Below, in pieces: positions 31,620 through 50,602 of a DNA stretch of 64,000 nucleotides. The position numbers were made by a program, and so were the translations under genes. Within the stretch, counting starts at the first letter, position 1, and each line of letters opens with the position of its first letter. The DNA is from Endomicrobiia bacterium (GTDB taxonomy: Bacteria > Elusimicrobiota > Endomicrobiia > DTEH01), in assembly GCA_039630545.1 (NCBI GenBank), contig JBCNUU010000005.1:1-64000 (forward strand). The letters are read 5' to 3'. Under the pieces are notes generated by a model, which did no database searches, had not been told where the DNA came from, and saw nothing but the letters and a program-made list of their open reading frames with translations.

Positions 31620-32570
31620 CTATTTTTTAAGAATATCTTTTAAAAATTTAATTGTATCTGGATGAGCTACAACTACAATATCACATCCAGCTTGTAAGTA
31701 CCCCAACGAAGTAGATATTTCCCAAATTTTTGCTCTCTCTTTTGTATCTTTTCCCCAGTTTGGCTCTTCCTCAGGAGTTGCTTTAGCTTCTTTTGTTTTC
31801 CATGTTTCTTCAGCAATTAAGTTTATTACAGGTGTTGCCATTACTTTATCACCCTGTAAGCCAGCAAGGCGACATCTTTCAATAATTGAATATGAGTATT
31901 CAAAACCATATCCCAGTCCTCCCGTAGTATGATGCATTACAATTCTGTCAAGTGGTATGCCTGTATCGTTAATCAAAATATTGAGTTGCTTAGCTAAGTT
32001 TATATCTAATGGCGTTTCTGCTATTATTGAGTGTCCACAAGAAAATGCAGATAAAGAAATTGTTTTGTAATTTTCTTTTACAGCCATACCCACAAGTATT
32101 TTTTCGTTTTTTGTCAATTCGCATACTAAAGGTAGAATTTCCATGTCTTTTTCTATATGATTACAACCTAAAATTATTAAAGGTAATTGAGTTGTGTTTA
32201 AAACTTCTGGAATGAAGTTTATTAAATATTCTCTGGAGTTATTTTTTGTGTCAGGATGGCAAGAAAACAATCTTATGCATATAGCATCTGGTTCGGTTTT
32301 TTCTATTTCTTTTATCCATTTTAGAGGGTCTGTGACTATATCTTTAAATTCTTCATAAAATGTAGGCCATAGATCTTCAGGTAAATAATCCAGAACTTCA
32401 GCTGCTATTATGGGTTTGTTAGGAATGTTTCCTTCAAATTCTAGAAAAGGTAGAGTTTTTTGTCCTCCAACTTTGATGACTTTGTTGCGACTTCCTCCTT
32501 CTTCTTTTGTAGCACCAATTGTAACTGTGAATATTTCTGATGAGTACTTTTCTATCAAGTATTCCACCAT
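31620..32570 (-). CDS. acsD: Corrinoid iron-sulfur protein small subunit (CoFeSP delta)
   Basis: VGG..TLPFLEFEG, DINLAKQLN, GLGYGFEYSYS..ER.RLAGL.GD, KEA and WE motifs. Confidence 0.93.
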   Translation of the reverse strand: MVEYLIEKYSSEIFTVTIGATKEEGGSRNKVIKVGGQKTLPFLEFEGNIPNKPIIAAEVLDYLPEDLWPTFYEEFKDIVTDPLKWIKEIEKTEPDAICIRLFSCHPDTKNNSREYLINFIPEVLNTTQLPLIILGCNHIEKDMEILPLVCELTKNEKILVGMAVKENYKTISLSAFSCGHSIIAETPLDINLAKQLNILINDTGIPLDRIVMHHTTGGLGYGFEYSYSIIERCRLAGLQGDKVMATPVINLIAEETWKTKEAKATPEEEPNWGKDTKERAKIWEISTSLGYLQAGCDIVVVAHPDTIKFLKDILKK

Positions 32571-32592
32571 ACAATTTAAATTCTACTTTTTG

Positions 32593-33543
32593 TTAACTAA
32601 AAATTTTATATCCTTCTATATGAAACCCAAGTTGAATTTTTAATAGATGTAGTAAATTTTTTGCTAAAATGCAAGTTGTTACAGAACCTACTCCCCCCGG
32701 AACTGGTGTAATAAAAGATGCTTTCTTAGAAACATTTTCAAAATCAACATCTCCTACAATTTTAGTTTTTGGTTTACCTGATTTTTCATCAATGATTTCT
32801 TTACCATTTTCATCTAAAACTTTTATTTTATTTATCCCCACATCTATAACTACAGCTCCATCTTTTACCATATCAGCAGTAATAAAGTTTGGTTTTCCCA
32901 CTGCTACAATTAGAATTTCAGCACGTCTTGTGTGTTCTTGTAGATTTTTGGTTGCAATGTGGCATACAGTTGGAGTTGCTGAACTTAAAAGTGAAGACAG
33001 TAACATAAGCAAAATCGGTTTTCCAACTATTTCTGAATGGCCAACAATTACAGTTTCTTTACCTTTAAGTTCGATACCCGTTTCTTTTAAACATTCTATT
33101 ACTGATAGTGCAGTACACGGCGCAACAGTTAATGGTACTTCTGCATAAAAAAGTTTACCTAAGTTTTCTGCTGTAATTCCTTCTATGTCTTTGATTGGAG
33201 ATATTTTGTTTTGAAGATGTCTTTGATTAAGATGTTGTGGTAAAGGTAAATTTAACATTATAGCGTTAGTGGTAGGATCTAAATTGAGATTTGTTATTAA
33301 TTGTTCTATTTCTTGTTGAGTCGCATTTTCTTTAAGTTGGATAATTTCAATTTTTATTCCCAATTCTTCAAATATTTTGCATTGGTTGTTAACATATACT
33401 TTTGTTGCAGGATTTTCTCCTACAATTATAGAAGCTACTTTGGGAGTAAACTTAGATTTGTTTTTTATTTCTTCTATTCCAGATTTTACTTCTAATTTTA
33501 TTTTTTCTGCAATTTTTACTCCGTCTATAATTTTTGCTAGCAT
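32593..33543 (-). CDS. folD: Methylene-THF dehydrogenase FolD (probably monofunctional)
   Basis: PCT, G.S.IVGKP, VIDVGIN, GDVDF and TPVPGGVG motifs. Cyclohydrolase residues are substituted (Q54, N98). Confidence 0.93.
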   Translation of the reverse strand: MLAKIIDGVKIAEKIKLEVKSGIEEIKNKSKFTPKVASIIVGENPATKVYVNNQCKIFEELGIKIEIIQLKENATQQEIEQLITNLNLDPTTNAIMLNLPLPQHLNQRHLQNKISPIKDIEGITAENLGKLFYAEVPLTVAPCTALSVIECLKETGIELKGKETVIVGHSEIVGKPILLMLLSSLLSSATPTVCHIATKNLQEHTRRAEILIVAVGKPNFITADMVKDGAVVIDVGINKIKVLDENGKEIIDEKSGKPKTKIVGDVDFENVSKKASFITPVPGGVGSVTTCILAKNLLHLLKIQLGFHIEGYKIFS

Positions 33544-33577
33544 ATTTTTTCCTTAATTATTATTTTATTAAATTACC

Positions 33578-34444
33578 TTATTTTCTAGGCTCAACATGTA
33601 CGGTTATTTCTTTGATCTGTGGGTTAAAACTTTTTAATATCTTTTTTACTTCTTCGGCTATATTATGAGCTTCTTCTAAAGTTAAATCTTTGTCTACTTC
33701 TATTTCTGTTTCAATAAAAAAGTGTCTTCCAACTCGATGAATTCTTGTAGAATAAGAATTTTCTACACCATTTACAGAAGCTATTAGATTATCAATTTCA
33801 GTTTTCATTTTTTCAGATGGTAAAGTATCCATAATTATTAGCATATTTTCTTTCAATATATCTATGCCCATTTTAAAAATAAAAATAGAAATTATAATAC
33901 TTCCTATGGCATCCATTGCTAAAACTCCAGATTTTGTGGCGATTATTGCAAATAAAGCACCTACTGAAGAAAAAGCATCAGACCTGTGATGATATGCATT
34001 TGCTGTTATTACAGGTGAATTTAATTTTTTGCCTACCAGAAATGTGTATCTGAAAAGTAATTCTTTTACGATTATAGAAATGATGGCTGCATATATTGTT
34101 ATAGTTTTAGGAATGCTGTAGTGTTTATGGATTAATATATGTATTGCAGAGTAGCCAAGAAATATTCCTGTAATAAGAATCAAAAAAGAAACAAAAATTG
34201 CGGATATAACTTCTATATTACCATGACCATAAGGATGATTCTTGTCAGCCGGCTTTTGTGAAAGATGAAGTGATAAATATACAATTATCGTTGCTATTTC
34301 ATCAGATAGTGAATGAAGTGCATCGGCGATTAGTGTCTGACTTTTACCTAAAATTCCTACTAAAAACTTTCCAACAGTAAGAAAAAAATTAACTATTAAT
34401 CCTATTGTTGTGCAAGTCTTATCGTTAGAAAAATTTATTTTCAT
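33578..34444 (-). CDS. Cation diffusion facilitator family transporter (FieF-like)
   Basis: ADALHSLSD, HPYGHG, HHRSD and C-terminal HVEP motifs. Confidence 0.92.
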   Translation of the reverse strand: MKINFSNDKTCTTIGLIVNFFLTVGKFLVGILGKSQTLIADALHSLSDEIATIIVYLSLHLSQKPADKNHPYGHGNIEVISAIFVSFLILITGIFLGYSAIHILIHKHYSIPKTITIYAAIISIIVKELLFRYTFLVGKKLNSPVITANAYHHRSDAFSSVGALFAIIATKSGVLAMDAIGSIIISIFIFKMGIDILKENMLIIMDTLPSEKMKTEIDNLIASVNGVENSYSTRIHRVGRHFFIETEIEVDKDLTLEEAHNIAEEVKKILKSFNPQIKEITVHVEPRK

Positions 34445-34710
34445 CCAAGGTTGTATCTTTTTCTAATTGGTTCTTTTACATCCCATACACATTTAAGTCC
34501 CTTCGGGAAACTTACAAGATCACCTTTTTTAATTTCGTATTTCCCATTTTCCGTTTCAACAATTACTTTTCCCTCTAATATATAACAAGTTTCATCTTCA
34601 TCATATTCCCAATTAAACTTTGATATTTCACATTCCCATATTGGCCAGCTATTGACTTTTAGTTTTTCAAGTTCTTCTTTTGTAGGTTGTTTTATTTTTA
34701 TTTCTTTCAT
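34441..34710 (-). CDS. Small cupin domain protein (DUF861-like)
   Basis: WPIWECE.S.F.W.Y...ETCYILEG...GDLV.FPKG..C.W.V pattern. Confidence 0.88.
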   Translation of the reverse strand: MKEIKIKQPTKEELEKLKVNSWPIWECEISKFNWEYDEDETCYILEGKVIVETENGKYEIKKGDLVSFPKGLKCVWDVKEPIRKRYNLG

Positions 34711-34750
34711 AAAAATAACTCCTTTTAAAATGATTCCCCTATATTTAGAT

Positions 34751-36049
34751 TTATTTTCCTATTAGAAGATAAACAATAAAGATACTACTTAAAATCCACA
34801 TCGTTGGACTTATTTCTTTGAATTTACCGGAAAATATTTTTAATAAGGTGTAGCTTAAAATACCAAATATTAAACCGTTTGCTATACTATAAGTAAATGG
34901 CATTATAATCATGGTTAAAAATGCTGGAAGAACCTCAGTAATATCCTCAAAGTTTATTTTTAAAACAGGTTCAAGCATCATAAGTCCAACAATCACTAAA
35001 GCAGGAGCTGTTGCTTCCTTTGGTATAGCGCTAGCTAATGGCCAGAAAAATAAGGATAACAAAAATAAAATGCCTACAGTAACAGCAGTAACACCTGTTT
35101 TCCCACCTTCTGAGATACCAGCAGCACTTTCTATGTAAGTAGTCACAGTTGAAGTGCCAAATATAGCACCTAACATTGTAGCTATAGAGTCACATATTAA
35201 AACTCGTCCTACTCTTGGGAAACTTCCATCTTTTTGTATTATTCCAAGTTTTGCAGCAAGCCCAACAATTGTTCCTAAAGTATCAAACATATCTACAAAG
35301 GTAAATGTAAAAATTACAGCTATAAGTCCGAGTTTTATTGCTTCCAGAATTTTAAGTTTAAATAAAGTGTAAGAAAATACTTCTAAAGAAGGAAATGCTA
35401 AAAATTTCTCTGGTAATTTCGTAAGTTTACTTCCATCAGGTAGTTTTATAAATATTCCTATAAAAGTAAGAATAAGTATTGTCCATAAAAGTGCTCCTTT
35501 TACTTTCTTTGCTATTAAAAATCCTGCTAAAAGTATACCCAAAGTTGCTAGCATTACTGAACCTAATTTTATATCACCAAAAGTTATCATGGTATCCTTA
35601 GAAGCTACCACAATTCCTGCATGTTGAAGTCCTATTAGTGCTATAAACAGACCAATTCCAGCACTCACAGCATATTTAAGATTTAAAGGAATACCTTTTA
35701 CAATTTCTTGTCTTACAGGAAGAACAGAAAGAATAAAAAACAAAGCTCCGTCTAAAAAAACAGCTCCTAAAGCCACCTCCCATGGTAATTTCATGCCAAT
35801 ACATACACTATATGCAAAATATGCATTTAATCCCATACCTGGTGCTAAAGCAAACGGATGCTTTGCATAAAGTCCCATAAGTATACAGGCTAACCCACTG
35901 GACAACGCAGTTGCCATCATTACGGCGTGTCTGTCCATTCCGCAGTCAAAAAGGATAGCAGAGTTGACAAATAAAATATATGACATGGTCATAAAAGTAG
36001 TTACACCTGCGATTATTTCTGTTTTTAGTTGTTCTGTTATTATTTTCAT
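34751..36049 (-). CDS. NCS2/AzgA family purine permease
   Basis: AGVTTFMTMSYI, APGMGLNAYF, FDTLGT, TTYIESAAG and PFTYSIANG motifs. Confidence 0.93.
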   Translation of the reverse strand: MKIITEQLKTEIIAGVTTFMTMSYILFVNSAILFDCGMDRHAVMMATALSSGLACILMGLYAKHPFALAPGMGLNAYFAYSVCIGMKLPWEVALGAVFLDGALFFILSVLPVRQEIVKGIPLNLKYAVSAGIGLFIALIGLQHAGIVVASKDTMITFGDIKLGSVMLATLGILLAGFLIAKKVKGALLWTILILTFIGIFIKLPDGSKLTKLPEKFLAFPSLEVFSYTLFKLKILEAIKLGLIAVIFTFTFVDMFDTLGTIVGLAAKLGIIQKDGSFPRVGRVLICDSIATMLGAIFGTSTVTTYIESAAGISEGGKTGVTAVTVGILFLLSLFFWPLASAIPKEATAPALVIVGLMMLEPVLKINFEDITEVLPAFLTMIIMPFTYSIANGLIFGILSYTLLKIFSGKFKEISPTMWILSSIFIVYLLIGK

Positions 36050-36675
36050 ATCTTTATTTTTTGTAAAACTTTTTTTGTGATTATTTTTGCGTCGGTTATT
36101 ATTCTTTTAATTTGTTTTTTCTTTTCAACTACAAAAGATGTTTTCGGAAGATTTTTTAGGTTAATTACCACATTATACTTTGCAGCCTGTATTCCTGCAA
36201 GTAAAAATATAACTCCACAAGCAATGTCTGTTATTAAATTTTGATTTCCTATTTTTAGTAATCTTTCTGAATAGGAAATACATTTATGTGATAAATCCAT
36301 AACATCAAATGCAACTTTTGCTGCTTCTTCACATGCTAATTTTATTTGTTTGTTTCTTATTTCAATATCCAGTGGTGTATTTTTGGGCAGTTTATATGCT
36401 TTTGAGACTTCTAGGTAAGCTTGTACATCTTTGTCAACATATTGTTGAAGTTCTTTTTTAAGTTGATTTAGTTCTTCAATGATTTTTTTTATTTCCTGTT
36501 GGTGTTGTTCATAACCTTTTTTATTAACAGTAAAATTTGCCACCATTAAAAGACAACTAACTCCTGCAGATGCTACTAAAGCTGCAGCTGAACCACCGCC
36601 AGGTGCCGGAAGGTTGGATGCAAGGTCATTTAAGTAGTTTTCTATTGTATTAAGAATATATTGTGATTTTTCCAT
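36046..36675 (-). CDS. fchA: Methenyl-THF cyclohydrolase (cyclodeaminase/cyclohydrolase family)
   Basis: LAS..PAPGGGSAAA, D.D..AY, GN.NLITD and NV.INL motifs, next to metF. Confidence 0.88.
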   Translation of the reverse strand: MEKSQYILNTIENYLNDLASNLPAPGGGSAAALVASAGVSCLLMVANFTVNKKGYEQHQQEIKKIIEELNQLKKELQQYVDKDVQAYLEVSKAYKLPKNTPLDIEIRNKQIKLACEEAAKVAFDVMDLSHKCISYSERLLKIGNQNLITDIACGVIFLLAGIQAAKYNVVINLKNLPKTSFVVEKKKQIKRIITDAKIITKKVLQKIKI

Positions 36676-36687
36676 ATAAGTTTTTTT

Positions 36688-37572
36688 CTACAGTCCACAT
36701 AAATTCAGTAAATTAGGAACTTTATCATTCCACCCAAGTGGCATTATATGGATTCCGTTACAATATGATTTTATATCTTTTATTATTTTTGCTGCAATTT
36801 CTATACCTGTTTGTCCTGATTTTGTTTTTTCTTTGTCTTTTTTTAGTTCTTCAATTAGGTATTCTGGAACATTTACCCCTGCAAGATTTTCATTCATAAA
36901 TTTTGCCATGCCAGCAGATTTAAGGATGGTTATTCCAGCCATTATAGGTATTTCCCCAAAATTTTTTCTTACAATTTCCATAAACTTAATAAATTTATCC
37001 GGGTTAAATATAAGCTGAGTTTGAAAAAATTCAGCGCCTGCTTTTATTTTTTTTTCCATCTTAAATAATTGGGGGTCGAGTGGTTCTGCTTCTGGAGAAA
37101 CCACAGCACCTATACAGAAACTCGGAGGATCGCCTTCAAGTTTATTGCCAGCAATATCATATCCTTCCATTAAACGTTTTACTGTGTAAATTAATGATAC
37201 GCTATCTAAATCAAACACAGGTTTGGCATCTTTATGGTCACCTAATACTACATGATCTCCTGTAAGCAACAAAAGATTTTCTATTCCAAAATAGGCAGCG
37301 TTGAGAATATCTGATTGAAGAGCTAGTCTGTTTCTATCACGACAGGTAAGCTGATATATTGGCTCAAAGCCGTGTTGTTTAAGTGTAATACACATACCAA
37401 GAGAACCAAATTTCATAACTGAAGATTGGTTGTCTGTTACATTTATAGCATCAACTTTATCCTTTAGATATTTTTTTATCTCTTCAATTAGGTGCCCAAT
37501 TTGCCATCCTTTAGGGGGACCGATTTCAGAAGTGATTACAAATTTTTTCAAAAATAAATCTTTTAATTTCAT
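36688..37572 (-). CDS. metF: Methylene-THF reductase catalytic subunit
   Basis: EIGPPKG, NVTDNQ, QLTCRDRNRLALQSD, LTGDH, FDLDS and FFQTQ motifs. Confidence 0.94.
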   Translation of the reverse strand: MKLKDLFLKKFVITSEIGPPKGWQIGHLIEEIKKYLKDKVDAINVTDNQSSVMKFGSLGMCITLKQHGFEPIYQLTCRDRNRLALQSDILNAAYFGIENLLLLTGDHVVLGDHKDAKPVFDLDSVSLIYTVKRLMEGYDIAGNKLEGDPPSFCIGAVVSPEAEPLDPQLFKMEKKIKAGAEFFQTQLIFNPDKFIKFMEIVRKNFGEIPIMAGITILKSAGMAKFMNENLAGVNVPEYLIEELKKDKEKTKSGQTGIEIAAKIIKDIKSYCNGIHIMPLGWNDKVPNLLNLCGL

Positions 37573-37588
37573 TTGTGTTTATATTTTA

Positions 37589-38188
37589 TTATATAAAAAT
37601 TTGTTTATTAAGTAAATCTAATTTATTTAAATTTTTCAATTTTAAAATAATTTTCTCCCAGCCACAATCTTTTGTTTTGTCAACTTCACATTTTCCATTT
37701 TTTGCACCACCACATGGTCCGTTAAGTAAAGATTTAGAACAGCTTGTAATGGGACATATAGTGCCTGTGTAGTTAAGATAACAGCTGCCACACAAAGCAC
37801 AATCAAATTTTCCCTCATATGGAAGATTGTATCCCTTGTATCCTGTAAGATAAAAAGTATTACAAATCCCAAATACTTTCTTTTCAGATACTAAAGAAGA
37901 TAAAGTTGCCACACCTATGCCGCATGAAAATATAATTAAAGCATCCTGGTTTTCTATTTCTTTAGATAGAAAAGATAGGTATTTGTTTACATAATCTATG
38001 TTACATATATAATCTAAAATTTCCACAGTAACTTTATGCTTTTTTTCCAAGATTTTAGAGTAATTCAGAGCATCTTTAATTGAAACATATACCTCATTGC
38101 AACCATTACATATAAGATAAAACAATTTTTCGTAAGGCTGAACAATATCTAAAATTTCTTTTTCCGGTTTAGGTTTTGTTATAAACAT
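37589..38188 (-). CDS. metV: MTHFR small Fe-S subunit MetV
   Basis: CxGC, SCGIG, CxxCGxC..TGxICP..CSKSLLNGPCGG...CE...CGW motifs. Confidence 0.9.
   Translation of the reverse strand: MFITKPKPEKEILDIVQPYEKLFYLICNGCNEVYVSIKDALNYSKILEKKHKVTVEILDYICNIDYVNKYLSFLSKEIENQDALIIFSCGIGVATLSSLVSEKKVFGICNTFYLTGYKGYNLPYEGKFDCALCGSCYLNYTGTICPITSCSKSLLNGPCGGAKNGKCEVDKTKDCGWEKIILKLKNLNKLDLLNKQIFI
37649..37741. repeat. 93-bp perfect direct repeat, copy 1 (in metV)
   Basis: Identical base for base to 39616-39708. Confidence 0.93.
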
Positions 38189-38196
38189 AGTTAGTT

Positions 38197-40194: not shown

Positions 40195-40242
40195 TTCAGT
40201 TATTCAAAATTTATGCGAACCAATATCCAGCTTTAAGATAAA

Positions 40243-42459
40243 TCACATCAAAGGTGGTAAAGATAAGGCTGGATGATTGACTTTTGTTAAGTGTTCAAGC
40301 AACTGCTGTGGATCTGTAGTTATTGTTTCATCTGCTATTTTTTCTAACAAATCTGGTTCTCCTATTTCTTCACAGCGTTTTTTGAGTTTTTCATATAACA
40401 TATCTTTTAATTCTTTAGTCATCCAGACAATTCGTTTAAGTCCACCTTCTGGAAGTAAAAACTTTTTGCTTACTAAATATAATCTTCCCACACCTAAAAA
40501 CCCTGGAATCTGATTTCCGCCACCTACAGAACCTGCTAAAGTTGAAAATGTCATTCCACAGGGCGTCATACCAGTATATCCTCGGTTTACTACCATAAAA
40601 CCATTACATTCTGGAAGAATAGCTATGATACACTCAAAGCATCCACAGGATGTAGTTGGATATTCCATGATAGAATAATTCAAAAACCTTTCAACTGCAC
40701 CATGTGATGCTTCGTGGACAAATTTATTAACCCCTTCCCATTCTCCTTTTAAAGGATCAATACATCTTCCTTTTATAATAGGTTGGTTCATCCCTTTAGG
40801 ATTAATTTCATAAGCTGCTTTTCCATCAATCCAGTTATATGCTCCACAAAGACCAATCTTTTCTGGAGTAATTACACAAACATGGTTTGGCGCATAACTC
40901 TGACATAAGGTGCATGAATAAAAAGTATCCACAGCTTCATCAGTTAATCCAGCAAGACGAGTATCACGTTCATCATAAATTTTTAATATCTGTGGCAACA
41001 ATTCCTTAATTTTTGTTTCGTCAGTATAAATTTTAACCTGAACTTTATCTACCAGTGCAGGAAAATCTTCTAAAAATTTTGCAACTAAAATTTTACCAAA
41101 ATGTTTTAGTCTAAATCCTGAATTATATGCTTCTTTTGAAATTCTTATCCAGTTTTGATTTCTTTGTCCCATATGAAATATACCTTTTGCAAAGCTTATA
41201 TAGTGGTGGATTTGTCTTTCTAAAATAGATTCAAAGTCTTTTTGCATTTTTCTTCCTGCTACTTCTACAACTATACCTAGAGGCATTGCAAAAGGTAACT
41301 TGTCGGATTCAACTTTTACTTCGTCTATATCATGACCAACAACTTCTATTTTTCCATTTTCAATTTCCTCAAAGGATCTCATTAAAACTACTTCAAAAGA
41401 TGTGGAGTATTTGCCTCCAAATTCTACATAAGTTTCTTCTTTTCTTACTCGTTCTCCTTCAAAAGCAGCCCCAAATGCTACCGGGATATCTATTTTTGAA
41501 ATTTTAATTTTAAGACCGCGAATTTCTATAGCTTTGTTTACAATTTCTTCTTGAGGTACAGGAGAAACTACATATTCATAAGTACCAACTCCACTTGAAA
41601 GTATCTGACCAATATCTGTATCTGCAACTACAGGAAAACCAAAGTTTATAGCACCCGCAGCTGTTGCAAATTTTTCTTCATCTACTTCTCCTAAGGCAAT
41701 AATAAACGCAAATACTCGTTCTTTGTTGTATAAAAGTATATCTTTTGCTTTGCCAGGTTGAATTCCTCCAAAAGACATTGCTGCTCTTGTTGCAAAATTT
41801 AAAGCATAAACTGTGGATGTTATATCGGTCCCGTGAGGAACCAAAAATACATCCCAGCCCATCTGAATTCCTTCCTGAGCAAGTTGTTGTGCTATACAGA
41901 TCTTTTTTCCGTTTACAAGAGAAGTGGCTGACATAAATACGAGTATATTTCTTTCTTGCAACTGAGTTATTATTTTTTTTGCAGTGTCAACATCAGAAGG
42001 AGCACCTACTATTGTTGCAAAACCAGGCATTCTTCCATCTACAAGTTTAATGCCCTGTTCTCTTAAAATCATATCATTTGTAAAACCTACCCAGAAATCA
42101 TGGTTAGGTTTGGGATGATAGTCTGGTAATGAATATTTAAGTGCTTCAATAATTTCTTCAGCAAATAAAGTAGCTATACCAGCGTCAAGGGTATCACCTA
42201 AATAGGTTAACCAAAGTTCTTCCGAAGGAAGCACTGGCAGCAATTTTTTTGTATATTCAATCATAGGGAACAAATCACCCAATTTTTGAATTTTTTCTGC
42301 AGTCATAGCATATATAAAAGGTAAATAATAAGCAGTGTCTGGAAAACCAACCGGCAGTTCTTTGCCATATTTTTCAATTGCTTTATTTAGCATCTCTTCT
42401 GCACGAGCTACAATTTTGTGTGCTCCCAAAATTGCTTTTGTAGCAATCATCTTTGACAT
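40243..42459 (-). CDS. acsB: Acetyl-CoA synthase (bacterial-type ACS), intact
   Basis: FPDTAYYLP motif. All six A-cluster Cys are present (FYSCTLCQSYAPNHVC, GLCGA, TSCGCFE). SD AAGGAG. Confidence 0.96.
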   Translation of the reverse strand: MSKMIATKAILGAHKIVARAEEMLNKAIEKYGKELPVGFPDTAYYLPFIYAMTAEKIQKLGDLFPMIEYTKKLLPVLPSEELWLTYLGDTLDAGIATLFAEEIIEALKYSLPDYHPKPNHDFWVGFTNDMILREQGIKLVDGRMPGFATIVGAPSDVDTAKKIITQLQERNILVFMSATSLVNGKKICIAQQLAQEGIQMGWDVFLVPHGTDITSTVYALNFATRAAMSFGGIQPGKAKDILLYNKERVFAFIIALGEVDEEKFATAAGAINFGFPVVADTDIGQILSSGVGTYEYVVSPVPQEEIVNKAIEIRGLKIKISKIDIPVAFGAAFEGERVRKEETYVEFGGKYSTSFEVVLMRSFEEIENGKIEVVGHDIDEVKVESDKLPFAMPLGIVVEVAGRKMQKDFESILERQIHHYISFAKGIFHMGQRNQNWIRISKEAYNSGFRLKHFGKILVAKFLEDFPALVDKVQVKIYTDETKIKELLPQILKIYDERDTRLAGLTDEAVDTFYSCTLCQSYAPNHVCVITPEKIGLCGAYNWIDGKAAYEINPKGMNQPIIKGRCIDPLKGEWEGVNKFVHEASHGAVERFLNYSIMEYPTTSCGCFECIIAILPECNGFMVVNRGYTGMTPCGMTFSTLAGSVGGGNQIPGFLGVGRLYLVSKKFLLPEGGLKRIVWMTKELKDMLYEKLKKRCEEIGEPDLLEKIADETITTDPQQLLEHLTKVNHPALSLPPLM

Positions 42460-43082
42460 AGTTTTTTTCTCCTTTTTTAATTTCAGTGCTTCTCGTTTTT
42501 TATTTTAAAGGATCTGGTTTAAATACATATTTTCTTCTAATAATTTTTTCAACTTCTTGAGTGCAAAATTTTACAACATTTTATGCTTCTGTTACATGAT
42601 ATGGAGTTCCAAAAAATACAAGTACTCAAGAAGCTACAAAGTAGCATCCTATTGTTATTGCCTTATTGTTATTGCCTTTTCTGAATACCATTAAAACACA
42701 GCACCTGCTATTGGCATTCGTCTAACGAGTTACAAATGTCTTCTTCTTTCAACATAGCATAACATGCAATAAGAATTCTTGAGTTGTCAACACAAGAATC
42801 AAAATGTAACACAGGTGGCATCCCTACTGCTTTGCAGATCTCCTGCAGCCCTTTACCTGCGTATTCAAAAGCAACTTCTGATTTCATCAAACCTTCTTTT
42901 GGGCACTCAATAGCAACACAGTCTGTTTCTACAACTAACACATCATGTTTTAAAAGTTCATTGGGCGTTATTACATGCTAATGTCCACTTAATAATTTTG
43001 GATTGCTATACCTTACAAGTCCTACAACACCGCAAATTCTTCCATCGCAAATAGCATCATTTTTTATGCTATATTTAGCCAT
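42460..43082 (-). pseudogene. cooS: Ni,Fe CO dehydrogenase pseudogene
   Basis: Manual translation: MAKYSIK|NDAICDGRICGVVGLVRYSNPK...*...DVLVVETDC...GMPPVLHFDSCVDNSRI, then a frameshift to PIAGA..WYSEKAITI-GCYFVAS*...PDP..KKREALKL. Large N-terminal deletion, stops and frameshifts. Confidence 0.9.
42651..42678. repeat. 14-bp tandem duplication (ATTGTTATTGCCTT x2) frameshifting cooS
   Basis: Directly visible in the sequence. Confidence 0.9.
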
Positions 43083-43389
43083 AGGTTATTTTCATAGCAA
43101 ATCTTTTTTATTTTTCAGGGAATTTTGTGGGAATAGAAAAAATCACCTTTTTATTTCTCAAATTCTTTAGGTATTTTGTGAACAAACTTTTTTGCTATTA
43201 AATTTTTTAGATTTGGTGTCTGTTTGAAAATCAAATTCTTTGGTTATAATTTTGAGTTTTTTATAGTTCTACTAGTTTCAAGATTTAATTCTTCTATGAT
43301 TTGTTTTACTTTTAGTGTGGTTTGATTCTGTGTTTTAACTTCTGATGAAATAGAATAACTCCTTTTTATATGTTAATGAAAATTGACTT

Positions 43390-44030
43390 TACTTTTTGGA
43401 AAAAACTGAAGAAGATAATTTTATTTTGCTTTCTTCAAATTTTTGCAAAGGTTTATTAAAATTTATATAATTTTATATTTTTTTTCAACTGTTGTTAAAT
43501 GAAAATTAGATCAGGTTGTGTAGTGATTTTTTTTGCAATAATGTTTACTTTTTTAATTTTTAATTCTTCTGCTAGATTTAAAATTCTTTGTGTAGTTTGT
43601 ATACTTTTTAATGTAGGTTCTGTCAAAATAAAAAGTGTATAATATATTTCTTGTTGTTTTTCGTGTTAGTACTTCTATTTCCTGCAAGGAGGTTTATAAT
43701 TATGACTTCATCTGTGTTTAAAATTAAATGTGTAAGTAAACTTTTAAGAAAAGCATTTTCAGGGCAATAACAGCCACTATCTGCTTTCTTTATTATAAGT
43801 AAGTATAAATTTTCTCTTTTAAAAGAATACTTTTCAGAAACATCGCTTACTTTCGTATTAAGTATATAGAACCCAGTTTTAAGTTTTAAGGTTTAAGTTT
43901 TAAGGTTTGACTTGGTTCTTTCTTCTATTAAATGCTTAAGTTCAGATATAAGGGTAATATTTTTAAGCTCTTTAGGAAATTCTAATGTAAAACCTAAATT
44001 TCCATTAGGGTTTGCATCTGTAGCATTATA
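43390..44030 (-). pseudogene. cooC: CooC1-type CODH nickel-insertion ATPase pseudogene
   Basis: Manual translation: ATDANPNGNLGFTL..ITLISELKHLIEERT..GFYILNTKVSDVSEKY..SGCYCPENAFLKSLLTHLIL..AG/IEVLTR../TEPTLKSIQT..LAEELKIK. Walker A region missing, several frameshifts. Confidence 0.88.
43881..43908. repeat. 14-bp tandem duplication (AAGTTTTAAGGTTT x2) disrupting cooC
   Basis: Directly visible in the sequence. Confidence 0.9.
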
Positions 44031-44039
44031 TATTCTATT

Positions 44040-44250
44040 ATCCAATGGACATACATTTACATAAATTCCACAGCGACTAGATATTAAAATTTCTTTTTCT
44101 TTGTTTTAAAAATCTCCACGGTTAAAAAAGCAAAAATCCTGAAGTACAGACAAATTATCATTAATCGGTATAAAAAAACTCATGATAACTAAAAATATGA
44201 AAGATGAACTAATTGTTGTAAAGATGCTATAATCTATCTAAAGGAATAAA
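44040..44250 (-). pseudogene. Remnant of a 4Fe-4S-binding, possibly membrane-bound protein
   Basis: Eroded ferredoxin motif SSRCGIYVNVCPLD (CxxCxxCxxxCP-like) running directly into the cooC remnant. Hydrophobic FIFLVIMSFFIP upstream. Confidence 0.4.
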
Positions 44251-44410
44251 TTTATATAACTATCAATTATCCTTTCGAATATAAGAAAAAGTATATCGTG
44301 ATAGACACATCTTGCATATGGATTTCACACCACATTCTTTCAAACAGTTAAAATTAAAAATAAAAAAATACGAGGAAACAAAACTTTATTGTTTGTAAAC
44401 TTTATTGACT

Positions 44411-44712
44411 CTAAAAGAAAATGCATAAAACATATTCTAAATTGCCTTCAGGTATTTCAGTATAAAATTTTTTATTAAAACCTTTTAAATCCACAGTAAC
44501 TGCGTCTGCATATTTTATTAACTCTTTTAAAGGAATAGGATTAACAGAACCATTTGTATGAAACAGCACTTTTAATCCTTTTTGTTTTGCTAATTTAGCA
44601 ATATCATATATATATTCATAAAAAATTGTTGGTTCATTTATATTGTGAGAAATTGATTTGCAGTTATTTCTTATTGCTTCTTTAATTACTTGTTGTGGTG
44701 TATAATTATTAT
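44411..44712 (-). pseudogene. Internal fragment of an AmmeMemoRadiSam-type radical SAM enzyme
   Basis: TPQQVIKEAIRNNCKSISHNINEPTIFYEYIYDIAKLAKQKGLKVLFHTNGSVNP.PLKEL...DAVTVDLKGF..KFY. No start, no CxxxCxxC motif, truncated C-terminus. Confidence 0.8.
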
Positions 44713-44834
44713 ATGGAAAAATTGCTATGTATGAATGTAGTTATTCATTAAAATAATATGTAATGTTATAGCGAAATAATTGCCACTTTTTTGAAAAGAA
44801 ACTGTAACTTTATTGCTATTTTTTAATCGTTATT

Positions 44835-46544
44835 TTAAAATAATCCTATAACTTTTCCATTTTCATCAATATCAACTTTTGTACCAGCAGGAACCGAAGG
44901 AAGGCCTGGCATAGTTCTTATTTCTCCACACAATGGAGACAAAAATCCAGCACCAATAGATGCTCTAATATCTTTTATTGGCAACACAAAATCTTTTGGT
45001 CTTCCTTTCCAGGAAGGTTCATGAGAAATTGAAAGATGTGTTTTAGCCATACAAATAGGAAGTTTATCCCAACCAAGTTCTGTATATAATTTTATTTTTT
45101 CCTCTGCAACAGAAGAATATTGAACCTCTTTTGCACCGTAAATTTTTGTAGCTATAATGTGAATTTTATCTTTAATAGGGATATCTAATGGATAAAGAAA
45201 TTTAAAATTATTAGGTTTATTAGCTGTTTTAATTACTGCAAAAGCAAGATCTTTGCCTCCCTCTCCACCTTTTGCCCATACTTCAGAGACTACTGCTTCT
45301 TCTGCACCAAAATCTTTTGCACGCTTTTGTATTAAAGAAATTTCTTTGTCTGTGTCGGTTGTAAATCTATTTATTGCTACCACTACTGGAACTCCGTGAA
45401 TTAGAACATTTTCTATTTGTTTTTCTAAATTACATAACCCTTCTTCTAATAGTTGTAAATTTTCTTTTGTTAACTCTTCAGGTAAAGGTTTTCCTGGAAG
45501 AACATTGATTTTTCCAGAATGCATCTTCAAAGCTCTCACTGTAGCTACCATTACTACACAGTGTGGTGTAAGTCCTGAATAACGGCATTTTATATTCATA
45601 AATTTTTCCATACCACAGTCTGCACCAAATCCGCTTTCTGTAACGACATATTCTGCAAGTTTGGTAGCAATAAGATCAGCAAGTATTGAACTATTTCCAT
45701 GAGCAATGTTAGCAAAAGGTCCTGTATGAACAAACACTGGGGTGTATTCTGTTGTTTGTAGAAGGTTTGGTTTTATAGCATCCTTAAGTAATACAGTCAT
45801 TGCTCCAGCAACTTTAATATCTTCTGCTGTTACGGGTTTATTATCGTAAGTAAATGCTACTACTACTTTAGAAAGACGTTTCCTGAGATCTTGTAAGGAA
45901 TTAGTTAACGCAAGAATCGCCATAAGTTCTGATGTACCAGAAATATCAAAACCACTACTCAAAGGCATTCCGTCATCACTTACAGGACCTAATCCAATTA
46001 TAATATTTCTTAAAAAACGTTCTGAAACATCCATTACATACCGCCATAAGATTTTTTTGGGGTCAATTGGAATTTGTCGTCTATAGAGTGCATTATTTAA
46101 AAATGCCATACATAAATTATGGGCTATAGAAACCGCATGTGTATCACCTGTAAGATGGAGATTGAAATCCTCCATGGGAAGAACTTGTGAATAGCCACCT
46201 CCTGCAGCTCCACCTTTTATACCAAACACTGGTCCCAAAGATGGTTGTCTTATACAGGTAAAAACTTTTTTTCCTAACTTTGCCAGTCCTAAAGAAAGTC
46301 CAATTGTAGTAATGGTTTTCCCTTCTCCAAGAGGAGTAGGTGTTATCGCCGTTACATCAATATATTTTGCTTGAGGGTTATTTTTAATTCTTTCTAAAAT
46401 TTCAAGTTTCACTTTAGCTTTATAGTCTCCATAGAGCTCCAATTCAGAAGGTAGTATTCCCGCCAGTTTAGCAATTTCAGTTATAGGTTTTAGTTTTATA
46501 CTCTGTGCTATTTCTATATCTGATGGAACTTCATAGTATGCCAT
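44835..46544 (-). CDS. fhs: Formate--tetrahydrofolate ligase
   Basis: TPTPLGEGKT, IKGGAAGGGYSQV, LHLTGD, GPFANIAHG, CMAKTHLS and TMPGLP motifs. Confidence 0.97.
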   Translation of the reverse strand: MAYYEVPSDIEIAQSIKLKPITEIAKLAGILPSELELYGDYKAKVKLEILERIKNNPQAKYIDVTAITPTPLGEGKTITTIGLSLGLAKLGKKVFTCIRQPSLGPVFGIKGGAAGGGYSQVLPMEDFNLHLTGDTHAVSIAHNLCMAFLNNALYRRQIPIDPKKILWRYVMDVSERFLRNIIIGLGPVSDDGMPLSSGFDISGTSELMAILALTNSLQDLRKRLSKVVVAFTYDNKPVTAEDIKVAGAMTVLLKDAIKPNLLQTTEYTPVFVHTGPFANIAHGNSSILADLIATKLAEYVVTESGFGADCGMEKFMNIKCRYSGLTPHCVVMVATVRALKMHSGKINVLPGKPLPEELTKENLQLLEEGLCNLEKQIENVLIHGVPVVVAINRFTTDTDKEISLIQKRAKDFGAEEAVVSEVWAKGGEGGKDLAFAVIKTANKPNNFKFLYPLDIPIKDKIHIIATKIYGAKEVQYSSVAEEKIKLYTELGWDKLPICMAKTHLSISHEPSWKGRPKDFVLPIKDIRASIGAGFLSPLCGEIRTMPGLPSVPAGTKVDIDENGKVIGLF

Positions 46545-46560
46545 AAGTTTTCACCTCCTT

Positions 46561-47355
46561 TTATTTTTTACGATAAGCCTCTAAGAACGACTCACAATAT
46601 AATTGTTTACCCAAAAGGAGTTCCGCAGTGATTATTGCATCCATAAGTTCTTTATCTAACGGATTTAAAATTGCACTATCTAAACCAGAAGCCAATGCTA
46701 ACACTACATAAGTTCGGTCAATTAAATTTCTATATTTTGTTCCTTGAGAAACATTAGATAATCCTAATAGAGTTTTAGGAGGTGGATCTGATACAAGTTT
46801 TATTTGCTGGATTACTTCTAATACGGCAGTAGCATTCTGTTGTGATACATTAATTGGTAGGATTACAGGATCTATAAATAAATTTTCTACATCATATTCG
46901 TACTCAACACATTTTTGAATAATGTTTGTTACTAACTCCATTTTACCTTGAACATCCTGTGGAACACCTGACTTTGAAATAGTTAGTGCTATAAGTTTCG
47001 CATTATATTTTTTTGCCATTGGGATGTAGATATCTAACTTTTCAAAGTCAGCATGTGTAGAATTTATGAAACATCCTTCTCCTTTGCTTGCTGTTTTGAG
47101 ACCTTCTTGCATTATTTCAGGTTTAGTAGTATCAATTGCTAAAGGTGCATCAGTTATTTCTCTAATAGTATTAATAAGCCACAACATATCTTCTAACGGA
47201 TTTATAGATTCAGGTCCTACATTTACATCCAGCGCATTAGCTCCTGCCTCAAGCTGTTGTTTAGCAAGCTCTTTAATAAACTCCGAGTTACGTTCTTTTA
47301 TTGCCTGGTTTACTTTTTTAAACATTCCGTTTATTTTTTCTCCTATGATATACAT
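46561..47355 (-). CDS. acsE: Methyl-THF:CoFeSP methyltransferase
   Basis: IIGEKINGMF, LDVNVG, LAIDTT, INS, IDP and GLSNVSQ pterin-binding barrel motifs, adjacent to fhs. Confidence 0.9.
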   Translation of the reverse strand: MYIIGEKINGMFKKVNQAIKERNSEFIKELAKQQLEAGANALDVNVGPESINPLEDMLWLINTIREITDAPLAIDTTKPEIMQEGLKTASKGEGCFINSTHADFEKLDIYIPMAKKYNAKLIALTISKSGVPQDVQGKMELVTNIIQKCVEYEYDVENLFIDPVILPINVSQQNATAVLEVIQQIKLVSDPPPKTLLGLSNVSQGTKYRNLIDRTYVVLALASGLDSAILNPLDKELMDAIITAELLLGKQLYCESFLEAYRKK

Positions 47356-47394
47356 TTTGATTGTTCCTCCGTAGTCCGTGAGGATATTATAATA

Positions 47395-47925
47395 TTATAA
47401 TGAATCTAAAAACTTACAATAAATTTGATAATCTTTGTAATCAAACAAAACAAATCTAACAATTTTAATGCTATTTAATTCTTTTGAAATAGATTTTATA
47501 GTGTCAAATACAACTTTTGTTGCTTCCTCTATAGGATATCCAAATGCTCCTGTGGAGATAGCAGGAAATGCAATAGAGGTTATTTTATTTTTTTCAGCAA
47601 CTTTTAAGACATTAATGTAACATTTTGCTAAAAGTTTATCCTCCGGTTTATCAATACCATATCTAGGACCTAGACAATGGATAATATATTTATTTGGTAA
47701 GTTATAAGCTTTGGTAATAACTGCTTCAGTGGGTTTTATTGGAGCATATTTTTTAGTTTCTTTTTCAAGTTCACTTCCAGCAGCTCGATGTATTGCACCA
47801 GCTACTCCTCCACCGGGTTTAAGCCATGCGTTTGCAGCATTTACAATTGCTTCAATATCAGGTTGTTTTGTAATGTCACCTTGGACACATTGGATTTTTA
47901 TTTTTTCTATTTGTTTTTCTTTCAT
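47395..47925 (-). CDS. Macro domain protein (YmdB-like ADP-ribose hydrolase)
   Basis: GDIT, AIVNAAN..L.PGGGVAGAIHRAAG and SIAFPAISTGAFGYP motifs. Confidence 0.93.
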   Translation of the reverse strand: MKEKQIEKIKIQCVQGDITKQPDIEAIVNAANAWLKPGGGVAGAIHRAAGSELEKETKKYAPIKPTEAVITKAYNLPNKYIIHCLGPRYGIDKPEDKLLAKCYINVLKVAEKNKITSIAFPAISTGAFGYPIEEATKVVFDTIKSISKELNSIKIVRFVLFDYKDYQIYCKFLDSL

Positions 47926-48484
47926 TGTTTTTTGTTGCTAAAATATTTTTGTAAATATTGATAGTATTAAGGTCTTAAAAAATTTAAAATTATTAACATT
48001 ACTCTTTTTAAAATTACAAGTGAATGATAAAATTAGAATAACTCCTATGTCAAAGATAATCCAATCAAAATTATCTTGATTTTTGGTGGCAATCTGTAAT
48101 TAACAACACATATGAGAGGTGTTAACACAAGACTACCCATATTGTGGGTAAAATAAACAGTACATCCCAACTTTACAAATTTTCAGGCCAGTTAATAAAG
48201 AATTTTAATCCTATGTAATAAATTATATCCCATGTCCCAAAGCTAAACAGAAAGTAACAAAATCTTTCAATAAAAGTTTTTCCATATAGTAAACTGATGG
48301 ATATTAAAATTATGATTGTAGAGACTTCTTTTAAAATTTCGATTCTAAATAATTTTGGTAAAATGTTCAAATTTAACGGAAAAAATCCAAAAGGGTAATA
48401 AATTTCTCTTACATAAACTTCAACGGCTGCTTCTAATACTCCCATTGTGACAGCAAATATAAATAGTACAATAAGTTTTTTCAT
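47923..48484 (-). pseudogene. Integral membrane protein pseudogene (ORF 48173-48484 is only its 5' part)
   Basis: Reading continues past the in-frame TAA as WPENL*SWDVLFILPTIWV, then frameshifted SLVLTPLICVV and FDWIIFDIGVILILSF. Confidence 0.7.
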
Positions 48485-49851
48485 TGTTGTTTATTAATTG
48501 GAAATTTTTTGATTTCTTCTAAGGACTTTTTAATTTCGTCTTCAGGATAAGCATAGTCTTCAAGTTTTCCTTCGAAAAATTGATCATATGCAGCAAGATC
48601 AAAATGTCCATGACCACTAAAATTAAACACTATGCATTTTTCTTGTTTTGTTTCTTTACATTTTAAAGCTTCATCAATTGTTGCTTTTATAGCATGTGCG
48701 GTTTCAGGTGCAGGTAAAAATCCTTCTGTTTTTGCGAAAGTTACTGCAGCTTCAAATACTGCTTTTTGAGGATAAGCTACAGCATCGATGAGTTTTTTAT
48801 TTACAAGATAACATAAAATCGGCGCGTCTCCATGATATCTTAATCCTCCTGCATGAATTTTAGGAGGTACAAATTTATGTCCTAAAGTGTACATTTTAAG
48901 AAGTGGAGTAAGTCCTACAGTGTCTCCATAGTCATAAAGATATAACCCTTTTGTAAGTGAAGGACAAGCTGTGGGTTCCACTGCTAAGAATTTAGTGTTA
49001 GTTTTTCCTTTAATTTTATCAGCCACAAAAGGTAAAACAAATCCAGCAAAATTACTTCCACCACCTACACATCCTATCATAATATCTGGCTTTTCGTTAA
49101 TCATCTCAAGTTGTTTTTTTGTTTCGAGTCCTATTATTGTCTGATGAAGTAACACATGGTTTAATACACTTCCTAAGGAATACTTTGTATCTTCATGAGT
49201 AACAGCATCTTCTACGGCCTCTGAAATAGCTATTCCTAAAGAGCCAGGAGAATTCGGGTTCTCAGATAAGACTTTTTTTCCAGAACTAGTAAAGTTTGTA
49301 GGTGAAGAATAAACATCAGCACCCCATGCATGCATTAATGATTTTCTGAATGGTTTTTGTTCATAACTAATTTTTACCATATAGATTGTACATTTTAGAC
49401 CAAAAATATTACAGGCAAATGCTAAAGCAGACCCCCACTGTCCAGCTCCAGTTTCTGTGGTAAGCCTTTTTACTCCTTCTATTTTATTATAGTAGGCTTG
49501 TGCTACTGCTGTGTTAGGTTTATGACTTCCTGCAGGTGATACGCTTTCATTTTTATAATAGATCCTAGCAGGTGTTTTAAGATATTTTTCCAGTTCGTAA
49601 GCACGAACTAAAGGTGTTGGTCTCCACATTTTATATACATTGATGACTTCATCAGGAATTGGGATCCATCTTTCCTGTGAAACTTCTTGCTGAATTAATC
49701 CCATAGGGAAAATAGGAATAAGCTCTTCTAAACTTACAGGTTTTCCTGTTTTGGGATTTATAGGCGGAGGAAGTGGTTCAGGAAGATCAGGTAGTATGTT
49801 ATACCATTCTTTGGGTATGTCTTTTTCTTGTAGGATTATTTTTTTGTCCAT
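48481..49851 (-). CDS. trpB2: TrpB2 (tryptophan synthase beta-like PLP enzyme)
   Basis: [40 protein letters not shown] and SGHG motifs. Start reassigned to 49851 (SD GAAGGAG). Confidence 0.93.
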
Positions 49852-49879
49852 AATTATAACTCCTTCTACATAAGTTTTT

Positions 49880-50602
49880 TTAAACAATTTTTTCTAAAAA
49901 TTTTTTTAAATCCGAATAAAAATTTGTGTTGTGTAAATTGTTTAACAAATGAATTCCACTTTCTGAATAATTATATATTATTTCATCTTTGTTAATTATC
50001 CCGTCAACTTTTATGTCAAATTCATTTTTGTTGTTATCAAAGAAGTTTAATAATACTTTAGTCGTAGCAATTTTAAGTTTCAATTTTGGTATCATTTCTA
50101 AAATTTTTTTGGCAGTTTGTATTGAGACTTTCGCAGGATTAATTACAATAATTAATATATCAATATTATCTGTAGTTCTTCTGGAAAAATGTTCCATTCC
50201 AGCTTCCGTATCAATTAATATGTATTTGTAGTTTTTACTTATATTAGAAAGAAAAGTTCTTAATAATTCATTTACGAAACAATAACATTCTTTACCTTCT
50301 GGTCTTCCCATGACAATTAAATCAAACCCTTTTTTTTCTACTATAGCTTCTTGAAGACGCATAGTTATATAATCTGCTTTTGAGATATGTTGAGGAATTT
50401 CTAAACTTCTTAATTCTTCCCTTATGTCAGCAATTGTTAGGTTATACTCTATGCCTAAATTCTCGGCAAGATTGGAGTTTGGGTCAGCATCTACTACTAA
50501 AACAGGTGTAAGGTTTAAATCCAGTAAGTAATTTAAAATTCCACAAGTAATAGTAGTTTTACCTACTCCTCCTTTACCACACACAGCAATTTTTTTATTC
50601 AT
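49880..50602 (-). CDS. acsF: AcsF/CooC2-type nickel-insertion ATPase, intact
   Basis: [16 protein letters not shown], MGRPEGxxCYCxVN and [13 protein letters not shown] motifs. Subtype inferred from the GRPEG..CYC motif. Confidence 0.8.

Follow-up and report, generated by a model that had tools for sequence, protein, structure and literature searches.

An acetyl-CoA synthase gene beside the remains of its partner

The DNA described here, referred to as the window, makes up the opening 64 kb of contig C45 from genome G000, a member of the class Endomicrobiia (Elusimicrobiota). It carries an intact acsB, the gene for acetyl-CoA synthase (ACS), and directly upstream the ruins of cooS, the gene for carbon monoxide dehydrogenase (CODH). 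The assembly amounts to 1.60 Mb in 82 contigs and is 95.5% complete with 0.17% contamination; throughout, G-numbers denote genomes, L-numbers loci, P-numbers proteins and C-numbers contigs of G000. The nearest acsB locus in the genome collection is L085 (83%), and close protein matches carry the labels Endomicrobia or Elusimicrobiota. A preliminary interpretation made from the letters of the window, the sequence-only reading, had reported a wrecked cooS upstream of acsB. The wreck is real and bigger than it stated, consisting of three pieces of cooS plus a wrecked cooC. It lies in a 2376-bp gap free of open reading frames (ORFs) between fhs and acsB, the largest such gap on G000 contigs of at least 20 kb. 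In reading order the gap holds a 100-codon radical-SAM fragment, whose family was set via the orthologous gene in G006 (a match to TIGR04337 under the cut-off, the protein being partial), the broken cooC, and cooS pieces that match residues 3-25, 120-180 and 424-611 of the 635-residue CooS of G009.

The damage to cooS is extensive. Its last piece, 64-72% identical to CooS of G009 and G005, is interrupted by a TAG at 42980, a TAA at 42693, a TGA at 42628 and a TAA at 42583, and is thrown out of frame by a 1-nt deletion near 42717 and a 14-nt duplication near 42680; a further stop at 42502 removes about 24 C-terminal residues. The two short pieces are matched with E values of 2e-7 to 3e-5, and none of 200 shuffles reached 1e-4. 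There are two large deletions, and the longest stop-free stretch of the remnant is under 90 codons. With the deleted parts went all the B- and D-cluster cysteines and three C-cluster ligands, which lie at invariant columns; the fourth C-cluster ligand, C447, has become tyrosine, and two are left. In the cooC pseudogene the P-loop region is unmatched, and there are stops and a frameshift. Stops of the TAG, TAA and TGA types together with frameshifts rule out a recoded genetic code, and general erosion of the genome is rejected by a coding density of 94.8%.

The lesions on which the sequence-only reading relied also stand in other assemblies, a check that rests on contigs and not on raw reads. 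The stretch is present in three public runs, all labelled hot springs metagenome (two samples from one study, possibly the source of the genome), and there is no RNA run among the public runs listed with it. Contigs from the three runs cross the scar at flat depth (125, 17 and ~85), a single contig covering acsB to fhs in two of them and the third run breaking near 43400, and no other letter occurs at any named stop or frameshift. Ten positions distinguish the runs from the window; nine of them fall in the dead 2.4 kb of the 8 kb compared, and none in acsB or fhs (p ~1e-4). A metagenome scan found no close relative with the scar (best 74%), and a trace of cooS upstream of acsB in G003 reached E 0.85 only and was not used.

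Is there a second CODH elsewhere?

A profile search of G000 with PF03063 matches one locus only, the scar, and tblastn with seven CooS queries likewise finds matches in the scar only; no other CODH was found in the genome, in agreement with the sequence-only reading. In G009 the order is fhs, a formate dehydrogenase (FDH) module, cooC, cooS, cooF, an NAD oxidoreductase and acsB, so the scar is the orthologous cooS copy. The cooF, NAD oxidoreductase and FDH genes of G009 have no ortholog in G000; PF00384 was not found, and the FDH query from G009 matches a hydrogenase N-terminus only. Between cooC and cooS, G009 also carries a small gene (L064:7982-8317), 72% alike to G000 C4:268-507, which we take from its motif to resemble ribosomal protein S18.

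The assembly has real holes, rpoB being among the genes not found, so that the absence of CODH falls short of proof, and this counts against our interpretation. An intact cooS could thus sit in an unassembled or unbinned part of G000, the scar being a spare copy. Besides the missing rpoB, this is favored by genomes in which cooS does not lie beside acsB (G001, G019) and by the completeness of only 88-89% of the CODH-less genomes G003 and G017. We judge it very unlikely, as the remnant is a syntenic ortholog in the order cooC-cooS-acsB known from G009, the assembly has no intact cooC and no cooF, oxidoreductase or FDH either, no second contig at least 90% alike over the remnant occurs in the three runs, and all 50 draft genomes from other phyla with this type of acsB, some below 1 Mb, show the CODH family. 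The erosion of AcsB loops described below also fits a lost partner.

The sequence-only reading had noted that acsC lies outside the window; it is intact on contig C5 together with an AcsV-like activase. An rnf cluster is also encoded; fdh and metH, which that reading had listed beside acsC, acsV and rnf, were not found. Measured against a complete Wood-Ljungdahl pathway, G000 has AcsB with its A-cluster ligands, AcsC, AcsD, AcsE, Fhs, FolD/FchA and MetF, and neither an intact Ni-CODH nor an FDH was found in it. With neither of these enzymes the pathway is unable to fix CO2.

Acetyl-CoA synthase is probably still constrained

AcsB of G000 has the three domains of the family (PF18537, PF03598 and PF19436). 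As the sequence-only reading had it, all A-cluster cysteines are present (C516, C519, C528, C538, C605 and C607), aligned with the motifs of solved ACS. The CO-alcove residues R133, G136, I137, V140 and F230 are kept, at positions taken from PMC11474084 and PMC11321310. Y522 replaces F512 of Moorella, as it does in the CODH-bearing G009.

Since cooS died, the two neighbors have fared very differently. The remnant has changed at 16-19 of 66-69 invariant columns, against 0-3 in intact relatives, while AcsB has changed at 1 of 202, AcsC at 1 of 83 and AcsV at 0 of 61 (for AcsD, AcsE and AcsF see Table 1). In the middle and catalytic domains of AcsB none of 132 conserved columns is altered, where about 32 would be expected at the rate of the remnant. 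Second codon positions changed number 20/172 in the cooS remnant and 14/631 in acsB. At the lesion rate of the remnant 23.7 stops or frameshifts would be expected in acsB, and there are none, which means that ACS was constrained for most of the time since the death of cooS. These second-position counts put the age of the scar at roughly 0.1 neutral substitutions per site, and dS between G000 and G003 is ~1 to 1.6. The dN/dS of acsB over this pair is 0.079; a pairwise value is weak for this question because it spans pre-scar time. Inside a clade of five CODH-less genomes acsB is kept over long branches with dN/dS of 0.065 and 0.060. From the column, codon-position and lesion counts, which bear out constraint on acsB after the loss of cooS, we infer that ACS is still under selection in G000; a very recent release may nevertheless have occurred.

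The remnant itself can hardly be expressed and serve ACS as a structural partner without metals, an idea that we regard as scarcely conceivable given the broken frame with its four internal stops, two frameshifts, two large deletions and short open stretches, and the excess of second-position changes over acsB. A more substantial alternative is stepwise decay of the pathway, in which CODH went first, ACS follows, the corrinoid iron-sulfur protein (CoFeSP) is kept for methionine and acsB is a relic as yet unhit. The end state of such decay is known in the family, for acsB is a pseudogene in G008 and was not found in G002, G004 and G007; FDH, cooC, cooF and the radical-SAM gene are also lost from G000, and the dN/dS to G003 covers mostly pre-scar time. 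Yet the unaltered catalytic domain, the unchanged invariant columns of AcsF and AcsV, the persistence of acsB in the five-genome clade and the high coding density of G000 make decay distinctly unlikely.

Which genes report on ACS use? The sequence-only reading had pointed to an intact methyl branch. That branch is no evidence of ACS use, because acsC, acsD, acsE, metF with metV, metV-rnfC and mesB are kept without acsB in G004 and G007. The ACS-specific signal is acsB plus acsF, whose ortholog was not found in G002, G004, G007 and G008, where acsB is absent or broken. As a separate observation, G004, G007 and G008 display a CoFeSP-only state with acsC, acsD, acsV, acsE, metF and a mesB-like gene and no acsB, acsF or CODH (L078, L079, L070, L310, L325-L332), a set that would equal a five-protein methionine synthase route.

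Apparent loss of CODH recurs in the phylum

The ACS C-terminal family was matched in 29 of 401 sampled Elusimicrobiota genomes. Two of these were not counted, G008 because its acsB is broken and G006 because its contigs break at the locus; of the remaining 27, with intact acsB, 19 show a CODH and eight show none: G000, G003 (88% complete), G010 (97%), G011 (96%), G013 (98%), G017 (89%), G172 (99%) and G175 (96%). G006 was set aside as a CODH-less sister since its contigs break between the radical-SAM gene and acsB, and its AcsB groups with loop-intact proteins. In other phyla the CODH family is present in 50/50 acsB-bearing genomes, nearly all with a CODH-sized frame; these account for 50 of 79 loci and were picked by likeness to the G000 AcsB, which favors intact proteins. 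In the AcsB tree the eight fall into three groups, namely G000 with G003, the five-genome clade spread over three families, and G175 among CODH-bearing kin. As kin are not independent, this is evidence for three origins, not eight, and CODH appears to have been lost with ACS kept at least three times in Elusimicrobiota. FDH was not found in any of the seven CODH-less genomes searched for it, and Fhs was not found in two of the eight, G011 and G017. Some presumed CO2-fixers of the phylum therefore probably cannot fix CO2 by this route. Among AcsB homologs at large, L164, P0191, P0208, P0232 and P0238 are ~1190-1260 residues long, the four P proteins with intein-type Pfam domains.

Two AcsB loops may bear the mark of the lost partner

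The N-terminal (A1) domain of AcsB is the CODH-binding domain in solved complexes, according to PMC11474084. Two loops of this domain (Table 1) carry prolines that are nearly fixed in CODH-bearing homologs, P85 in 75/75 and P288 in 73/75; this CODH-positive set leaves out 10 of the 79 genome loci, whose CODH status is unknown, and G016, with a partial AcsB, is outside the motif counts. Six CODH-less proteins in a first count all differ at 288 and five of them at 85, and they show 7-21 unusual changes at 87 conserved N-domain columns, where controls average 1.0 and never exceed 6. That count is post hoc, as the loops were spotted by eye in the same sequences. In a held-out set of 14 further genomes, for which motif scoring and CODH search were submitted together, the two without CODH (G172, G175) scored 12 and 17 and had lost P288, whereas scores in the 12 CODH-bearing genomes were 1-6 and neither proline was lost there (p = 0.011). 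Of the two, G172 belongs to a clade already seen, which leaves G175 as the single fully independent case. The N-domain branch of G175 is 6.3 times its catalytic-domain branch. Altogether the loops are altered in 8/8 CODH-less Elusimicrobiota AcsB. Among metagenome loci the motifs are kept in 35/35 with cooS in the flank and in 33/38 without.

In G000 the loop states are derived, because the nearest AcsB homologs (the P0122 cluster, 89%) keep both loops. Loop 2 has acquired D284G, P288S, T289S, I291V, C292G and H296Y, and 7 of the 50 changes that AcsB of G000 has to itself lie within the 21 loop positions. A monomer model of G009 AcsB (mean pLDDT 87.8) gives both loops no regular structure; residues 293-299, the core of loop 2, are its sole stretch with pLDDT below 50, and loop 1 has lowered confidence. 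Loops that are conserved yet unordered on their own look as one would expect of partner-binding segments, and we infer that they were released because the CODH partner is gone. Against all the solved ACS chains compared, both loops stand out as inserted or divergent stretches, so the docking of CODH in this subfamily probably relies on an uncharacterised interface.

Three facts complicate this picture. Taken as a whole, the N-domain of AcsB shows no acceleration in G000 (branch ratio 1.15), its 7 unusual changes barely exceed the CODH-bearing maximum of 6, and three loop-2 changes are common to G000 and its sister G003, so that ACS may have come uncoupled from CODH before the scar arose. The sequence-only reading had proposed an independent and recent loss of CODH; the scar is indeed young, but the loss is no isolated event and the uncoupling may be older. 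P288 alone was rejected as a marker, to the detriment of a simple loop story, being alanine in 2/75 CODH-bearing homologs and valine in several of unknown CODH status. Both loops are likewise deleted or rewritten in other groups of AcsB, namely P0117, P0118, P0120, P0128, twelve 724-residue proteins among P0160-P0183, and L389.

In which direction could the pathway run?

Most names for energy metabolism in G000 rest on blast hits, motifs or ORF starts. The genome encodes a full MetE, serine hydroxymethyltransferase (SHMT), ThyX, pyruvate phosphate dikinase, an ADP-forming acetyl-CoA synthetase (C7), pyruvate:ferredoxin oxidoreductase (PFOR) beside the Rnf cluster, a three-gene [FeFe]-hydrogenase (C23) and an Mbh-type [NiFe]-hydrogenase (C34); on C34 an rnfCDGEAB-like cluster, separate from the MetV-RnfC2 gene of the window, was read from ORF starts. 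Pyruvate formate-lyase, MetH and the glycine cleavage P protein were not found in G000. A MesB-like protein of 350 residues gives no NCBIfam match at 1e-15 and has H-x-C, D and C aligned to the zinc ligands of MetE, the HCDC pattern ascribed to MesB in PMC7857596. Proteins with H-x-C...D...C of this kind occur in 33/33 CoFeSP-bearing genomes and 0/3 others.

Two side observations concern these genes. The full MetE (G000:C23:63602-65779, L218) occurs only in G000, G002, G003 and G006 among 23 genomes searched, which suggests a later gain in part of the genus. At G000:C45:129417-131795 (L217) the mesB-like gene is linked to a hexulose-6-phosphate synthase/RraA fusion (NF005442, just under cut-off), an arrangement shared by G010 and G013 and a possible formaldehyde tie to one-carbon (C1) metabolism.

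The best explanation, one that could as easily prove wrong as right, is cleavage of acetyl-CoA in the manner of Dehalococcoides, feeding the methionine and folate C1 pools and releasing CO. According to PMC7005905, which reports Zhuang 2014, D. mccartyi cleaves acetyl-CoA and releases CO without CODH. The sequence-only reading placed the methyl group on tetrahydrofolate (THF) in that organism; it is now thought to pass from CoFeSP to MesB directly (PMC7005905 and PMC7857596). Like D. mccartyi, G000 has AcsB and AcsCD with no CODH found, subject to the gaps in the assembly; it also encodes a candidate MesB, assigned by motif. Unlike D. mccartyi, which according to these two papers is without AcsE, MetF and MetE, G000 has all three and a MetV-RnfC2 fusion, and with these genes both directions are genetically open. 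Further differences are the other phylum, the still legible scar, and sister genomes that represent the complete, the ACS-only and the CoFeSP-only state. In the proposed route, acetyl-CoA derived from PFOR would be cleaved by free-standing ACS, and methyl-CoFeSP would hand its methyl group to MesB, or via AcsE to THF and MetE, or the methyl group would be converted to methylene- and formyl-THF in oxidative steps run by MetV-RnfC2/MetV/MetF, FolD and FchA; neighbors would have to take away the CO. We favor cleavage because searches found no FDH in 7/7 CODH-less genomes and no Fhs in 2/8, the whole group has the MesB-like protein, other C1 sources in G000 are few, and D. mccartyi offers a precedent.

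A number of points weigh against cleavage. G000 encodes SHMT and MetF, so it could make methyl-THF without ACS, as G004, G007 and G008 appear to do; glycine cleavage is present in the CODH-less G010 and G013. Cleavage of acetyl-CoA is uphill at standard conditions, and [FeFe]-hydrogenases, of which C23 encodes one, are inhibited by CO. Moreover, the full gene kit for the synthetic direction is present, and the main rival is accordingly a forward-running ACS without CODH, fed by CO from the habitat and methyl groups from formate (or serine), with electrons from H2 or fermentation, acetate leaving via the ADP-forming synthetase, and energy gained through a bifurcating hydrogenase and Rnf. Fhs, FolD, FchA, MetV-RnfC2/MetV/MetF, AcsE, CoFeSP, ACS and the synthetase are all encoded, as are both hydrogenases, Rnf and V-ATPase A, B and D. 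Conversion of formate, CO and 2 H2 to acetate would yield -118 kJ/mol at standard conditions and -4 to -48 kJ/mol at three illustrative concentration sets. The kept CO-alcove residues, the hot springs label of the three runs and a cluster of acsB with acetate kinase and fhs in G175 also fit. The monomeric ACS of Carboxydothermus hydrogenoformans, reportedly active apart from CODH on free CO, is a precedent and resembles the ACS of G000 in its separation; that organism is said to keep its CODH genes, whereas in G000 CODH is destroyed.

On the other side, searches of G011 and G017 found no Fhs, so that synthesis from formate is barred in these two; nor is the gene kit diagnostic, as ACS-less G004 and G007 keep MetV-RnfC/MetV/MetF; motif searches of G000, a weak test, found neither a formate channel nor an ATPase membrane sector; and free CO must get to the A-cluster without a tunnel. 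We regard forward operation as possible, if doubtful. A bolder version, which we consider unlikely, would make G000 a half-pathway acetogen living on H2, formate and scavenged geothermal CO by means of a free-standing ACS, Rnf and a bifurcating hydrogenase after discarding both CO2-reducing enzymes, the free-standing ACS having arisen many times and being marked, by sequence alone and in the further AcsB groups named above too, by loss of the two loops.

Genes around acsB

The ORFs that the sequence-only reading listed as full-length (acsB, acsD, acsE, the AcsF-type ATPase, fhs, fchA, folD, metV and metF) are so at their places in the window (Table 1); its rnfC2 is likewise a full-length ORF and encodes a MetV-RnfC fusion, not a plain RnfC2. 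The AcsF-type ATPase is 45-53% alike to ATPases of acsC/acsV/acsD clusters and 28-32% to those beside or near cooS. The name FchA is our assumption from Wood-Ljungdahl cluster layouts.

Table 1. Features of the acsB region, in coordinates of the window
Feature	Coordinates	Strand	Remarks
acsD, CoFeSP small subunit, 316 aa	31620..32570	-	NF003376 above cut-off; 0/50 invariant columns changed
folD	32593..33543	-	PF00763+PF02882; 0/103 invariant columns changed
fchA-type cyclohydrolase (FTCD_C family)	36046..36675	-	PF04961
metF, methylene-THF reductase	36688..37572	-	PF02219
metV	37589..38188	-	PF12225
MetV-RnfC2 fusion, 665 aa	38197..40194	-	PF12225 at residues 141-206; RnfC domains 236-663
acsB, acetyl-CoA synthase, 738 aa	40243..42459	-	NF040764 1040 bits, cut-off 800
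AcsB loop 2, residues 282-296, P-T-G-I-C-T-Y-E-H type	41572..41616	-	six derived changes in G000
AcsB loop 1, residues 83-88, W-L-P-Y-L-G type	42196..42213	-	P85 = T in G000
cooS remnant, residues 424-611	42503..43079	-	four internal stops, two frameshifts, C447 -> Y
cooS remnant, residues 120-180, broken	43082..43259	-	
cooS remnant, residues 3-25	43274..43342	-	
cooC pseudogene (CODH nickel insertase)	43381..44039	-	44-59% to CooC of G009 and G005
AmmeMemoRadiSam-type radical-SAM gene, middle fragment	44417..44719	-	74-75% to orthologs in G003, G006
fhs, formate-THF ligase	44835..46544	-	PF01268
acsE, methyl-THF:CoFeSP methyltransferase	46561..47355	-	NF005719 above cut-off; 1/93 invariant columns changed
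AcsF-type ATPase (likely ACS nickel insertase)	49880..50602	-	0/57 invariant columns changed

The fusion thus has an extra MetV-like N-terminal domain on RnfC2, beside a free metV; a protein of this type also occurs in G005 and G006, and its gene adjoins metV-metF in G003, G004 and G007. Within the folate cluster (33578-36049, minus strand) lie a cation-diffusion facilitator, a cupin and a purine-permease-family gene. The facilitator gene, usually with the permease, accompanies fchA in G001, G003, G005 and G006, and its substrate could be Ni or Co. A membrane-protein gene at ~48137-48484 (minus strand) has an in-frame TGA where the G010 homolog reads on, is absent from this place in G003 and G006, and is probably another pseudogene. 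Elsewhere in G000, V-type ATPase A, B and D genes are dispersed over C67:74131-75861, C77:12588-13967 and C12:200456-201064 with no operon, and at the end of contig C34 (121050-141206) an open frame runs for 6718 codons or more.

Implications

What does a CODH-less ACS mean for the phylum? The usual view of CODH and ACS is that of an ancient pair that cannot be separated, with D. mccartyi as the standard exception. Like the CODH/ACS of Moorella, Carboxydothermus and Clostridium autoethanogenum, G000 has a three-domain AcsB with A-cluster cysteines and alcove residues; unlike them it shows no CODH, and its eroding loops are insertions or divergent. A full-text literature search turned up neither a report of CODH-less ACS in Elusimicrobiota nor one that deals with these loops; its scope did not extend to subscription articles on how CODH/ACS evolved, which may mention ACS without CODH. 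PMC11257099, on Endomicrobia, does not mention the synthase in a term search, and the supplements of PMC7857596 have no Elusimicrobia entry. The Elusimicrobia of Meheust et al. (10.1101/765248) resemble G000 in phylum, Wood-Ljungdahl genes, Rnf and Mbh-type hydrogenase. That study predicts Rnf-dependent acetogenesis in the phylum and counts the carbonyl branch as complete at 4/5 subunits, a rule under which a genome lacking only CODH would pass. Surveys scored in this way would label such organisms autotrophic acetogens, although they are without both CO2-reducing enzymes.

The eroding loops are a candidate map of the CODH-ACS interface, as yet unsolved, in an uncultured ACS subfamily of very large size, and their erosion may serve as a marker of partner-free ACS that is independent of assembly completeness. 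Natural CODH-free synthases would also be test cases for the handling of CO without a tunnel. In this phylum the separation of the pair seems to have been caught underway, with complete, ACS-only and CoFeSP-only states within one family and apparently at least three recurrences.

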